This document shows positions 1,961 to 62,270 of a stretch of 64,000 nt of DNA, one piece after another (within the stretch, counting starts at the first letter, position 1; every line of letters begins with the position of its first letter). Made by a program: the position numbers and the translations under genes. The stretch covers positions 227,478,001 through 227,542,000 of the forward strand of contig OZ024742.1 of assembly GCA_964016885.1 (NCBI GenBank). The letters are read 5' to 3'. Source of the DNA: Eledone cirrhosa (Eukaryota). The notes below the pieces were generated by a model that was given only the letters and a program-made list of their open reading frames with translations, was not told where the DNA came from and searched no databases.

Positions 1961-2138
1961 AACGAAGGAAGTGTGGTATGGAACCAGATGGACCATAACA
2001 CACCAGAGTACTCAATACTTAGGGTAGTAGAGTGGGTAATAGGGAAAATGTTCAAGACCCCGACGGCAGAGCTCAGTCCAGAAATAGCCGTCGAAACGGC
2101 TTGAGCTCTGCCGTCGGGGTCTTGAACATTTTCCTTAT
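1961..2138. mobile_element. Fold-back insert in (TA)n: ~37-bp inverted arms plus left tail
   Basis: Arms 2039-2075 and 2102-2138 (ggaaaatgttcaagaccccgacggcagagctca / reverse complement); related fragment at 26015-26065. Confidence 0.8.
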
Positions 2139-2304
2139 ATATATATATATATATATATCAATCTATATATATATATATATCAATCTACATATCTCTCTCT
2201 CTCTCTCTCTATATATATATATATATATATATATATATATATCTGTCGGTCTATGTATATGTCTGTCTATTTCTCTCTTTCATTCTCTGTGTATATATAT
2301 ATAT

Positions 2305-2925
2305 GAGCGTCCACTCGGCTTCGCCCCGGTCTGTACTGTGCTCAAATCTATTCATAAGGCACCTATTGTCATCTGTCGTAATGTCCAATTTCCTTAGAAT
2401 AAAAGATGTTAAAAGGTATTTAAATATTGCATAACATAATTTTTTTAATGTATTTAGAATATCTAAATACAGAAAGTAATAAAGAAAATAACAGAAAAAT
2501 GTATGCTACAAAATTATAAAACATTTACAGAACTTCAGTATATACAATGTTTTAACTTTTTTTCTTTGGAGCATATATGAAGAGTTTGTGGGGTCTTCCT
2601 AGTCTGGAATAACCTACATACAATTGGCCATGTGAGAAACATCCCTCTTCTAGGTGGAGACCGACAACCTGCAGTGTTTTGCAATCATTTGAAACGAAAG
2701 GAGACATCTGTTGGTATTAGTTGCATTCTAGGTATAAATACGATGTCTCCTTACCACGTTCACTGAGGATTTTAGCTTCGATAATGTGAAGCTGTAGTTC
2801 AGTCATAACCATACGCATCTCATTGCACAATCTTGGCTGATCCAGATTTCTGAGAACCATGGTGACTGTGCCTTTCTTCAATTCAAGGTTGTGTGGCAGC
2901 ATACCGGACAGTTCCAACAATTTTG
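2305..2925 (-). mobile_element. Helitron relic: PIF1-type helicase C-terminus and 3' hairpin
   Basis: Minus-strand SGMLPHNLELKKG..MVLRNLDQPRLCN..IEAKIL and LQVVGLHL..CFSHGQLYVGYSR..KNIVYTEVL*; subterminal cggggcgaagccg hairpin near 2315-2328. Confidence 0.85.
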
Positions 2926-3219
2926 TGGATGGCTCATTTGTATATAGTGCAAGCTTGACGGGCTAGTATTTATTAGTGATGTCACAAATACAGCGTGATT
3001 CAGAGTAGAGACTATATGAAAGTATATGCATCATGTTTATTTATAATAAACATGCATATAGTCTCGCTGGTATGGTATATCATTAATCTCTCTTTGTGAT
3101 TATGTGTGGCATATAATGCCATTGTGTGAATAAATGTCTATGCTTGTGAAAGAATAGGTATATATTTGTGCTTGTGTGTGTGAATGTTTCAATGAGTGTG
3201 TGAATGTTTATGTATGTGT

Positions 3220-3530
3220 GTGGACGTAGCAGAGTCGAATAATTAAAAAGTTTACGCTTGGCAATCATTAGATTCCAGGTTTGATCCCTCTCAGTGGAAT
3301 CTTGGGGGAGTGTCATTTACCATAGCCACGGTTCGAGTCGTGTCTTGTGAAGGAAATATATTGTATATTTGAAAGCCCATCGGACTGACTGTACTTCAAA
3401 GGACCAGCCTTGTCACGCACTCTGCAGCGCTGAATCTCCTTCCGAATTACGTTAAGGGTACGTGTATCTGTGGAATGTTTAGCCACTTACACGTTGGACG
3501 AACTAGAAATCTCATCGTCATTCTGGGTTC
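3220..3530 (+). mobile_element. tRNA-headed SINE, family B
   Basis: Shared body (aaggaccagccttgtcac...gaattacgttaagggtacgtgtatctgtggaat) with copies at 9175, 14560 and 43865. Confidence 0.7.
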
Positions 3531-4189
3531 AAATTCCATCTCTAATTTTAATCCCTTACGGATCGATAAATAAAGTACCAATCCAGCACTGGGGTCGATG
3601 TTTTTGCTTATATGTATGTATGTACTGTAATACAGCCTGTTAATTAATCGTTCCTGTGTCAGTGTGGAACAAAAGGGCGACAATGGTTGCCGAGCACTGT
3701 CCTGCGTAATTCGGGCTGTTTGTTTACAAACAAACCGAACATTATAATAAATGTTCGGTAAACCCATACGTACATATATATATATGTGTGTGCATGTATA
3801 TATATATATACATACTACTGTACGTCTGTACACATATATGTATGTACGTATACATACTTATATATATATATATATATATATATATATATATATATATATA
3901 TATATATATATAGAGAGAGAGAGAATCCCGACCGCAGCCCCAAGCCGTTTCGGCTTGGGTGTTCAGTTTTGTGTGTATGTTTGGGATTTTACCTAACTCT
4001 ACATCTCCCTATGCATTGAGTACTCCCATGATTAGTGATCTCACCGGTCTCAACACCGCTGACTCTTTCTCTCTCTCTCTCTCTCTCTCTCTCTCTCTCT
4101 CTATATATATATATATATATATATATATATATATATATATATATATATATATATATATATATATATAAGTTCTCAACACAATTGCATGC

Positions 4190-59020: not shown

Positions 59021-60035
59021 TATATATATATATACACACACACACACGTATATATGTATATATATAAATATATATCGAGTCGAGAGAAAGAGAGAGAGAG
59101 TATAAACAATGCTTCATTCATCTAATATCTTAAGTGTATAAAACATTGTTTATACTAAATAAGCCCTCTTGCAACAGAAGATTGAGCAGTTTTCTTTGAT
59201 CTTTCACATACGCACACACATGTATATATATATATATATGAATACATTTAGTCCTTCATCAGTGATCTTCCAATCTTCATTGGTATTTCATCGCTTTAAA
59301 GACCATATACCTCCGGTTGGTGCGAGCAACGGCTAAAGAAAGTCGTTGGGACACGTAAATAAGGGGAACGAGCGAGACAGTAAACAATCAAAGATGGTAA
59401 TGCAACGAAAAGTGAGGAAGAAGGAGTCAAGTCCCTGAAATCGATGAACATAAGTTCTGAGAAAGCGTATATATATATATATATATATATATATATATAT
59501 ATATATATATATATATATATATATATATATAATTGAGATAAGCGGAGCAAGCAAGATTCAAACAATTTTTAAAAATAAATTAAAAAATATAATTTAAATA
59601 TTCACCTATTCCTTTTGCTTTTACCGACGGTTTCACCTCACAAAAGATTGGAAATCCTAGGGACTTCCAATGGAAATGTTCGGTATATATATATTTATAT
59701 ATATTGGTAATGGAGGCACATTACTTTACTCAGTTGTAGAAATGAGATGATAGGGACTGGGGTCCATATCATTCCACTGCAAAAGGGGTCATGGAGGTGC
59801 CACGGCAAAAAAGCACCCAGCACTCACTGTAAATGTGGTTGGTGTTAGGAAGGGCATCCATCTGTAGAAATCAAGCCAGAATCAGTTCCCGTCCCACCCT
59901 TGCAAGCAGGGAAAAGCAGACATAAAATGAAATGAGGATGAAATGATGATATATATATATATAATAAAAAAAGAAAATGTTCGCTCTACATGGTTGAATA
60001 CAATAAATGTAATCTTAGTTTTTCGAATATTAATA

Positions 60036-60218
60036 ATTGTTTCTACTTTATGCACAAGGCCAGCAATTACCCAGTGCATTACTGGTACTTTATTTTATCG
60101 ACCCCGTAAGGATGAAAGGCAAAGTCAACCTCGGTGGGATTTGAACTCAGACCGTAAAGGGACGTAACTATGCTGGAAAGCATGGCGTCCGACCCTCTAC
60201 CGATACTGCCAATCCACC
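60036..60218 (-). mobile_element. SINE family A with 18-bp TSD
   Basis: ttttcgaatattaataat at 60020-60037 and 60222-60239. Confidence 0.9.
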
Positions 60219-60446
60219 TTGTTTTCGAATATTAATAATAACATTCGATTTGTTTGCATAATTGCAAACAAATCGAATGTTATTATTAATATTAAAAAAA
60301 CTCAGATTACATTTATCTGTTAGAACACGAAAAGTGTGAAACAACAGAATGTTCACTTTTCGTGTTCTAACATATATGCCTAACATCTTCATAAATTTTT
60401 CGGGGATAGCCGTGGTGGTGGTGATCGTATGTCATTGGCTAATTTT

Positions 60447-60516
60447 CAACCAATCAGAGTAAGTGTTGATATATATATATATATATATATATATCAACAC
60501 TTACTCTGATTGGTTG
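60447..60516. repeat. Perfect 70-bp palindrome: 22-bp arms around (AT)n
   Basis: caaccaatcagagtaagtgttg-(AT)n-caacacttactctgattggttg. Confidence 0.9.
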
Positions 60517-61968
60517 TGGTTACCTCCGATTCAACCCGGAATAACGTATATATATATATATATATATACTATTCCCCCTCTCTCTATATATATCTTACGC
60601 TTTCGCTTTACACTCCTCCCCTTCAATAACACATTTCCCCCTCTCTATATATCTCTTCCACTGTTACTTACGCCTGTTTCTCTCTATCTGTTCCGTCTCT
60701 ATATATATATATCTCTTACTCTTTCGCTTTGCACTCCTCCCCTTCAATACCATCTCTCCCCCTCTCTATATATTTGTTACTCTATCGCTGCACGCTCCTC
60801 TCCTTCAATATATCAATTACACACGCTTTACACTCCTTTATCCCCAGCGCCCCTATATATACACCCCCCTCCCGCATCTATATTTTAATGTTCCGTTGCA
60901 CCGTGAATATATGTGTCTATATATATATACATATATATTGTATATACACATTCATGTATGTGTATACACACTCATGTATGTATATACACTGGTTTTATGT
61001 GTGTATTGTAAATTTGTACTGTTAAAACACGAAACTAACATTCGATTGACACTTTGATTACCTGTACAGGCAATAGTTATTAGAATGCTGTTGAAGTGTG
61101 TATATATTTTTGGGGGACATCCTGTATATACACACATTATATATAATACAATAAACAGATAAATACACACATATATATATGAGCTTATTTAATTATAAAT
61201 ATTGTGAATTTTTAACTCAGTTCAATTATATATATAAATGGCTTCTACAGGACTAGAACTGTTTCATTCGAAAGAAATCATCATAATATTGAGAGGGGGG
61301 ACTAGATAAAATATTTCAAATCAAATGTGTATAAGTTATAAGTTAAAATGTATAAATAGAGACGATAGTGGAGGTATATCTGTTTAGTGGAACAGTAGAC
61401 GATAGAATTAAATACAGACGAGAATCTCCCTTTAATGAAACAGCAGACGATAGAATTAAGGCAATTTAAATTTTAAGCATTTGCATTTCATCGTTACGGG
61501 GTCGATAAAATAAAGTACCAGTAATACACTGTCACTATAAGTAGACGACTTTCAAATTGAATTGTTGGTTCCATTTCTTTAGTATTTTCAATTGTAGTTA
61601 TCTACTTAAAAAGCGTTACACGGTTAGAGACATAATTGGTAAGTTATATCTTCCCTATTAAACCATTGCATTATTTCGCCTACAATAGAACAAAAATGAA
61701 ATGTTCTTTAAAGAAACAGGAATATAACTTTATAAAAAAAAAAGTTGCATCCGCTTCTTTTATCATTGATAATTTTTTCGTTTTAATATTAATTGTTTTT
61801 TGTAGTTGTTTATATTAAAAATCTTACTGTAATATTTACTTAAACGAAGGCAGACATCTAAACTTATAGATTAATCTTGAGCGAAGGACTAGATAAATCT
61901 CTCTCTCTCTCTCTCTCTCTCTCTATATATATATATATATATATATATATATATATATATATATATAT

Positions 61969-62270
61969 AAACGAAGAATGATAACATTTCAAGCAAAGAG
62001 TTTAATTAGGTAATGACTTACAAATTTGTTTCAGTATATATTTAATATAATATTAATATATTTTGTAATATTATTAACTAATTATTATAATTAGCGCTTC
62101 AGGCTTTGTCTATATACTGAAACAAATTTGTAAGTCATTACCTAATTAAACTCTTTGCTTGAAATTTTATCACTCTTCGTTTTGAATTTCTCCTAAGTAT
62201 TCAATACTCTGTTGAGAAATACATTTTACATAAACAGTCTTTGTACCATTTATACGGTATTAATTACTTA
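61969..62270. mobile_element. Fold-back insert: ~72-bp arms with a hammerhead 3' half, plus right tail
   Basis: Arms 61969-62040 / 62111-62182; GAAACaaatttGTA|agtc in each arm, no CTGATGA. Confidence 0.8.

Follow-up and report, generated by a model that had tools for sequence, protein, structure and literature searches.

Hammerhead-bearing fold-back inserts in TA repeats as insertion scars of Penelope-like elements

Here, we analyse a window of 64,000 nucleotides (64 kb; contig OZ024742.1, positions 227,478,001 to 227,542,000), part of a 379-Mb contig in a microsatellite-rich 3.0-Gb assembly, in which nine fold-back inserts, several with hammerhead ribozyme cores, sit in runs of (TA)n. We find that these inserts are a known pattern, the insertion scars of Penelope-like elements (PLEs), and not a new ribozyme device. 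Each very probably consists of two truncated PLE 3' ends that meet head to head within (TA)n (seven traced to parents, two recognised by their anatomy), the likely route being inward reverse transcription from two nicks.

The nine fold-backs and their parents

Inserts and their families are called F plus a window position, and loci outside the window carry L numbers. The features of the nine inserts, with types assigned from their parents, are as follows.

1962..2135, fold-back F1961, Hydra-type; minus-sense copy with tail at 1962-2042, plus-strand copy without tail
2093-2115, plus strand, 3' half of a hammerhead in F1961; longer family copies have a U3-A8 core
18355..19774, fold-back F18352, Hydra-type; tail-less long copy at about 18355-19637 (minus), 49-nt arm plus tail at 19638-19774 (plus)
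18392..18464, minus strand, type I hammerhead in F18352 with CUGAUGA core, 36-nt helix II region and palindromic loop III
19381..19641, minus strand, C-terminal 87 aa of a GIY-YIG endonuclease with CxxC and CxH motifs (tblastn; 95% identity to the 798-aa parent reading frame)
19804..20279, fold-back F19804, Hydra-type; tail 19804-19946
19990-20063 (minus) and 20164-20235 (plus), hammerheads of F19804, the sole insert in which both arms pass our descriptor
26840..27082, fold-back F26850, Hydra-type; tail 26840-26970, perfect palindrome 26971-27082
28435..28777, fold-back F28431, Hydra-type; tail at about 28670-28777
28469-28526 (minus, intact) and 28575-28632 (plus, helix II base change), hammerheads of F28431
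33186..33342, fold-back F33182, Neptune/Nematis-type parent; arms 42 nt, tail about 62 nt
35907..36275, fold-back F35902, Hydra-type; tail about 133 nt
35960-36091, minus strand, U3-A8 hammerhead of F35902 with 107-nt helix II region and shortened helix I
45672..46160, fold-back F45669, old; arms 75% identical, degenerate hammerheads in both
61970..62268, fold-back F61969; hammerhead 3' halves in both arms; cargo of a Helitron-like element

All nine lie where a preliminary description of this DNA had placed them. Self-alignment and reading of the window verified each one, and a blind scan, looking for inverted repeats that are bounded by TA and extended by 40-200 nt on one side, gave exactly the same nine matches, as against 0, 0 and 0 in three shuffles; (TA)n runs of at least 8 nt make up 4% of the window. 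The arms measure 33-151 nt at 75-100% identity, and two inserts are perfect palindromes. For 61969, a figure of 79% arm identity was discarded as a product of alignment through the centre; its arms are 97% identical over 71 nt. At 18352, what had been described as a spacer of 1.2 kb is in fact the longer of the two inverted copies, made up of the endonuclease C-terminus, about 1 kb of 3' untranslated region (UTR) and the hammerhead.

Fold-back density is uneven across the genome stretches scanned. The early estimate of about one per 7 kb suits this window (9 in 64 kb) and the flanks adjoining other PLE inserts (51 in 291 kb) but not 13 other 10-kb stretches, where 10 of 12 matches fell within a Helitron-like element and 2 remained. 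Nor are the nine instances all independent insertions, 61969 being such cargo.

Each insert is a member of a dispersed family (149-3,695 first-look candidates per query, which are not copy numbers; the top 40 were scored and 12-30 fetched). The suggested Penelope-like origin is borne out for seven of the nine families, whose arms and tails map to parents bearing a GIY-YIG endonuclease; judged by sequence, six of these parents are Hydra-type and one is Neptune/Nematis-type. The parent of F18352 has a 798-aa open reading frame (ORF) with reverse transcriptase (RT) and C-terminal GIY-YIG endonuclease (L046, L052, L058). Its motifs are a CxCX5C linker, GIY-YIG, CxxC, CxH, DKT and RW, with no CCHH, and the RWK motif of Hydra is present as RWI. 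Full copies run in the order hammerhead, arm end, 90-96 nt tail, short leader, ORF, 3' UTR and hammerhead again. In L047, L052 and L058 the hammerhead-arm-tail block stands on both sides of the ORF as a pseudo-long terminal repeat (pLTR), an arrangement documented for F18352 only. Compared by eye, the ORF resembles Hydra-1_Obim; the only named protein relative, from Argonauta hians, is 1 of 37 matches, and on these grounds the host is probably an octopod. A protein search gave 100,167 candidates, with open frames of about 810 aa.

The link between arm and parent is a same-strand endonuclease upstream of the arm, seen (in loci some of which overlap) in F18352 (41 loci), F28431 (Hydra-type, 1.6-2.0 kb away in 12 loci), F26850 (Hydra-type, 0.86 kb, 5 loci), F19804 (Hydra-type, 2 loci) and F33182 (1.2 kb, 4 loci). 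F35902 is tied to a Hydra-type endonuclease via L313 with L260 and L261, and F1961 to one 718 nt upstream of the arm in a single uninterrupted copy (L315). Full or near-full parent ORFs are thus in hand for F18352 and F33182, and endonuclease ends for five further families; families were assigned to the Hydra type by their motifs and by an endonuclease that is 32-50% identical to that of F18352. The F33182 ORF (L306, L307) has DKG, a CX4CxxC linker and GIY-YIG with CCHH, and matches Pfam PF01541 at E 8e-6 and RVT_1 weakly.

Several neighbouring observations concern the same elements. Two further Hydra-type ORF fragments lie less than 20 kb past the window end (L294 at about 9500-11150, L293 at about 3380-3930). 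A solitary tail-less arm at 26000-26061 belongs to a superfamily around F1961 that has at least seven subfamilies among the loci. The tails of F26850 (26840-26970) and F35902 (36143-36262) have a common motif, as do, over a short length, those of F18352 and F28431; F26850 and F35902 also have a hammerhead 3' half in common, and an ATG in the F35902 tail may be the ORF start.

Outer ends, variable centres and the origin of the second arm

The ends of the families stop at one of two places: site A, where there is no tail, or site B, 62-140 nt further on, which gives tails of 62-140 nt across families. TA lies within 12 nt of 216 of 251 full-tail or tail-less ends at tail-query loci. One end is tailed and the other tail-less in 118 of 126 pairs, many of them from loci chosen by a tail query; in sets not selected by tail the count is 32 of 34, and in a UTR-selected set the tail is on 12 of 29 TA-flanked ends. 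If ends were independent, about half the pairs would be of this kind. The exceptions (6 with two tails, 2 with none) all measure at least 568 nt and are possibly separate events. The 'partial' tail class of F18352 was read as site A, which a wider limit confirmed. TA targeting, the involvement of several families and one-sided tails, all proposed beforehand, are supported. We found no quantified one-tail rule in the literature searched, which did not cover subscription journals.

The centres behave differently from the ends. In 30 loci of F28431 the outer ends are constant and the centres vary, and six further families likewise combine constant ends with variable centres, in sizes from about 100 nt to more than 4 kb. 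Most junctions are blunt or have up to about 8 nt of microhomology. Among 93 clean junctions the tailed arm is longer in 19, the tail-less arm in 38, and the two are within 10 nt in 36, a ratio biased by 30 loci selected for likeness to the window copy. Where the tail-less arm is the longer one, it cannot have arisen by the tailed arm copying itself, so two templated starts are needed. The 5' ends of the arms gather at hairpins that are specific to the family and lie within the hammerhead or just upstream of it. Hammerhead cleavage was rejected as the cause of truncation, with only 13 of 258 ends within 6 nt of the cleavage site (six families; F33182 was omitted, its reference copy having no landmark). 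A fixed transcription start for F28431 was likewise rejected: its limit of about 160 nt marks a hotspot at a hairpin, and some copies extend beyond it. The two arms of a pair tend to agree, F1961 arms being of the same subfamily in 24 of 24 scored pairs (permutation p = 1e-4), with significant concordance in 4 of 7 families.

How might such pairs arise? The parents, the outer ends that stay fixed while centres vary, the one-tail rule and the sister copies with an empty TA run are all directly observed; from these we infer, by analogy, priming at sites A and B by separate nicks. The element's protein would nick both strands of a TA repeat and reverse-transcribe inward from both, one nick priming at the distal site B (the tail end) and the other at the proximal site A, 62-140 nt upstream. 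Both cDNAs would copy back through the pLTR, often halting at RNA hairpins that lie inside the hammerhead or just 5' of it, and would then be joined bluntly or by up to about 8 nt of microhomology. Both arms are likely from one RNA, or from two RNAs of a single source; one RNA primed twice with strand displacement would fit the arm data, and two RNAs would do so likewise. The hammerheads, on this scheme, would be retained pieces of the parent pLTR. The analogy is with the Poseidon protein of Anolis, which nicks and extends both strands of AT-rich DNA in vitro, starts reverse transcription at two RNA sites bounding the tail, is a predicted dimer, and uses an uncut RNA template, hammerhead cleavage being dispensable (PMC11167929).

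The closest competitor keeps the same parents but would form the second arm by snap-back of one cDNA on its 3' hairpin, an endonuclease cut at a TA-like site A then leaving one tail. It accounts for arm concordance and for the many near-symmetric, hairpin-centred junctions (near 152 nt in F33182 and near 160 nt in F28431); in most families the closing letters of site A are TA-like, and Craig et al. propose endonuclease resolution as the source of tails (PMC8557442). Snap-back cannot, however, yield a longer tail-less arm (38 of the 93 junctions; about 1.3 kb against 49 nt at 18352), nor a partial tail on one side only. As a general account we consider it improbable; it may be the source of part of the symmetric class.

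Several points nonetheless weigh against two-nick insertion of PLE ends. No parent was found for F45669 or F61969, the search for the latter retrieving carrier copies only; the parent link of F1961 is a single copy; and a Pfam search of the Hydra-type ORF gave no match. Arm concordance is not significant in 3 of 7 families, can stem from gene conversion or single-source bursts, and is broken in L140, an F1961 pair outside the scoring pattern whose arms are of different subfamilies. The 36 near-symmetric hairpin-centred junctions also fit snap-back, and the two-nick mechanism for Hydra is taken over, by analogy, from a protein of the Poseidon clade.

Ribozymes, carriage and possible host effects

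Every hammerhead reads outward from the centre, as first described. Four inserts (18352, 19804, 28431 and 45669) do hold CUGAUGA and GAAA, but a strict type I descriptor finds only four motifs in three inserts (0-1 in five controls), which have the core, three helices and an NUH site of that type: 19804 passes in both arms, the right arm of 28431 has the helix II change, and 45669 fails on the rule of 4 bp in helix I. Only 3' halves are present in 1961 and 61969, and 35902 has a near-complete U3-A8 hammerhead. The window copies of 26850 and 33182 have no hammerhead although their families have one; that of F26850 is truncated 3' of it, and longer F33182 copies contain a U3-A8 hammerhead. U3-A8 cores with position 7 free occur in three families, and the helix II region ranges from 13 to 107 nt. 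An Rfam search at E up to 1 returned no hammerhead family among 122 matches (tRNA-like short interspersed element (SINE) and spurious hairpin families). The flanks of loci L001-L305 hold at least ten further hammerhead families, some U3-A8.

Could the inserts be kept as host regulatory devices, their ribozymes cutting read-through or intronic RNA on either strand? The conserved cores with covariation (U3-A8 in three families, position 7 free) and the folding of isolated motifs within 1-9 kcal/mol of the minimum would suit such a role. Core conservation, however, is expected from the parent, and 4 of the 9 inserts have no full core. With hammerheads that point outward, transcription of either strand yields the antisense arm first, and each strand of a fold-back has at most one hammerhead. 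Minimal loop-III hammerheads depend on a further copy within the same RNA, and their cleavage in vitro is poor (PMC4209133). In equilibrium prediction, imposing the active fold carries a penalty of +78 to +101 kcal/mol in the symmetric inserts 19804 and 28431 and +15 in 18352. We predict that the hammerheads are mostly silenced by the hairpin; with the antisense arm made first, one ribozyme per strand and a costly active fold, cleavage of read-through RNA is unlikely, and the regulatory explanation very unlikely as a whole. The image of double-ribozyme loci cleaving transcripts is not supported either, with one insert in nine passing in both arms and the hairpin predicted to win.

Slightly less likely still is that the fold-backs are non-autonomous units copied whole, like MITEs (inverted-repeat transposable elements of miniature size) or retrozymes. 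F28431 and F1961 copies mostly measure 150-500 nt with preferred centres, and 61969 recurs with a single centre. Yet a MITE is a uniform unit with terminal inverted repeats that is copied whole, and here centres and lengths vary (about 100 nt to more than 4 kb, grading into full elements) and the tail is one-sided, so the 'MITE-like' form first reported does not stand. Non-LTR retrozymes form head-to-tail tandem monomers; here head-to-head pairs are linked to coding parents, with no dominant monomer arrays. The variable junctions contradict copying of a fixed unit: the inserts are by-products of transposition, not a transposing unit. The recurrence of 61969 has its own explanation, since it is carried within a young Helitron-like element; that carrier and its surroundings are as follows.

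59964..60314, tenth fold-back, unlisted earlier; tail on left, split by a SINE, abuts the Helitron-like element
60315..64000, plus strand, young Helitron-like carrier of 5.85 kb, continuing past the window end to about L293:2175; copies 95-100% identical
60495..60546, plus strand, mini-insert: about 31-36 nt of fold-back tail plus inverted host flank across a TA run

All 25 top matches to 61969 have its flanks, and 27 of 30 flank-selected carrier copies hold the fold-back; one flank query gave 665 candidates. In the copies read, the carrier has TC and CTAG termini and lies between A and T; we take the Helitron rule to be 5' TC, 3' CTAG, insertion between A and T, and RepHel in autonomous copies. 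No RepHel ORF of at least 170 aa was seen inside it. The carrier also holds a fragment of a long interspersed element (LINE) and an inverted copy of its own 3' end at 1-kb spacing, and its TA runs gather new inserts. In L282, L286 and L357, extra fold-backs occupy a run that is plain (TA)n in other near-identical carriers; as sister carriers have the same run empty, the TA run precedes insertion. In the tenth fold-back the SINE shows an apparent target duplication, and the family also occurs in L217 and L190. The tail piece of the mini-insert is identical to a tail end in L286. At 60447-60546 a TA-centred 23-nt palindrome of host flank is joined to this tail of about 31-36 nt, as if one target end had folded back on (TA)n, copying host DNA; of 4,449 runs, 10 have a flank palindrome centred on TA in this way, compared with 0-1 in controls.

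That the palindromes are assembly artefacts can be practically dismissed: two are perfect and TA-rich DNA is hard to assemble, but most arms differ in sequence or length, the same anatomy with family-specific ends recurs at hundreds of loci, and new fold-backs occupy TA runs that are empty in sister copies. Four contig sets compared with 28300-36680 gave repeat-level depth, with no junction-bridging piece among the matches listed.

If transcribed, the insert loci would form long double-stranded RNA (dsRNA). A dsRNA or ADAR role is plausible. In Drosophila, small interfering RNAs (siRNAs) arise from inverted regions of Penelope (PMC3681739), and heavy editing of lizard Penelope repeats and an unusually high dsRNA potential in octopus have been reported (PMC5625713). 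Should the host be an octopod, so many hairpins in close succession could serve as ready substrates for ADAR or siRNA pathways. A bolder proposal, which we regard as doubtful and offer as speculation, is that long dsRNA of self-contained origin comes mainly from Hydra-clade fold-backs in this genome, that these underlie a large share of the exceptional hyper-editing reported in octopus, much as a palindromic Harbinger acts in frog, and that the one-tail rule reflects coordinated two-site priming by one Penelope ribonucleoprotein in vivo. The origin of inverted ends and one-sided tails is described as an open mechanistic question (PMC8557442), for which these families, young and abundant, with open ORFs, tails of 62-140 nt and a one-tail rule that is nearly strict, make a clean test system. 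In annotation, the inserts should be labelled truncated PLEs and not MITEs or miRNA hairpins.

Other repeats share the window, and transposon fragments are among its listed translations. Mariner/Tc1-type remnants lie at 44375-45651, 51607-52502 and 11981-12981, two with terminal inverted repeats; broken ORFs at 56186-57610 (minus strand) resemble a DNA transposase. At 35244-35459, 33-nt inverted repeats flank 150 nt without flanking TA, possibly a true MITE. A tRNA-like sequence at 21831-21922 (Rfam 60 bits) has an anticodon loop enlarged by an insertion of 20 nt, and an abundant 180-nt SINE-like repeat occurs in about 15 copies (22949, 25675, 35453, 55492, 60031, 63007 and others).

Comparison with known systems

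Much of this pattern is already published, namely the hammerheads of Hydra, its targeting of (TA)n, inverted copies, tails on one side only and cores of the U3-A8 kind, so that 'uncatalogued', as the preliminary description had it, does not apply. The Hydra clade, with hammerheads and (TA)n targets, is on record and has an octopus family among its members (PMC8557442); pairs of hammerheads on opposite strands, separated by 100-700 bp and attributed to truncated elements, have also been reported, as have U3-A8 cores, a dimer requirement and weak cleavage in vitro (PMC4209133). Our additions are tails of greater length, a very long helix II, the multiplicity of families, measurement of the one-tail rule and the carriage of a fold-back by a Helitron-like element.

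With the Hydra clade, Hydra-1_Obim included, the elements share a single ORF with RT and C-terminal GIY-YIG, the RW, DKT, CxCX5C, CxxC and CxH motifs, the absence of CCHH, a hammerhead near the 3' end, (TA)n targets and an inverted 5'-truncated copy (PMC8557442). They differ from the Hydra elements of that source in size (about 3.6-4 kb against less than 3 kb), in an endonuclease-to-arm distance of 0.7-1.9 kb, in tails of 81-140 nt in the Hydra-type families against a general 30-40, in helix II regions of 20-107 nt, in the many co-existing families, and in U3-A8 cores in two Hydra-type families, which do not appear in the supplement's Hydra list (PMC8557442). The F33182 parent resembles Neptune/Nematis-type elements in its DKG, CX4CxxC linker, GIY-YIG with CCHH and pLTR hammerhead, and differs in its U3-A8 core and 62-nt tail; its motifs leave Neptune and Nematis joint.

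MITEs and non-LTR retrozymes are similarly short, numerous and hairpin-forming or hammerhead-bearing; unlike them, the inserts are not a fixed unit, do not carry terminal inverted repeats at both ends and form no head-to-tail monomer arrays, the tandem arrays of a recent retrozyme preprint (10.64898/2026.07.22.740005) being a different matter. The minimal hammerheads of metazoan PLEs agree in being type I, with palindromic loop III, U3-A8 and opposite-strand pairs, whereas helix II is far longer here (PMC4209133). Poseidon of Anolis carolinensis, finally, matches the scheme proposed for our elements in two RT start sites bounding a tail, extension of both strands, AT-rich targets and an uncut RNA template. 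It belongs to another clade, its tail lies inside the ORF and not, as in F18352, some 80 nt ahead of the ATG within the 5' leader, and a strict pairing of one end of each kind is not quantified in the excerpt cited (PMC11167929); in the fold-backs described here that pairing is nearly the rule.

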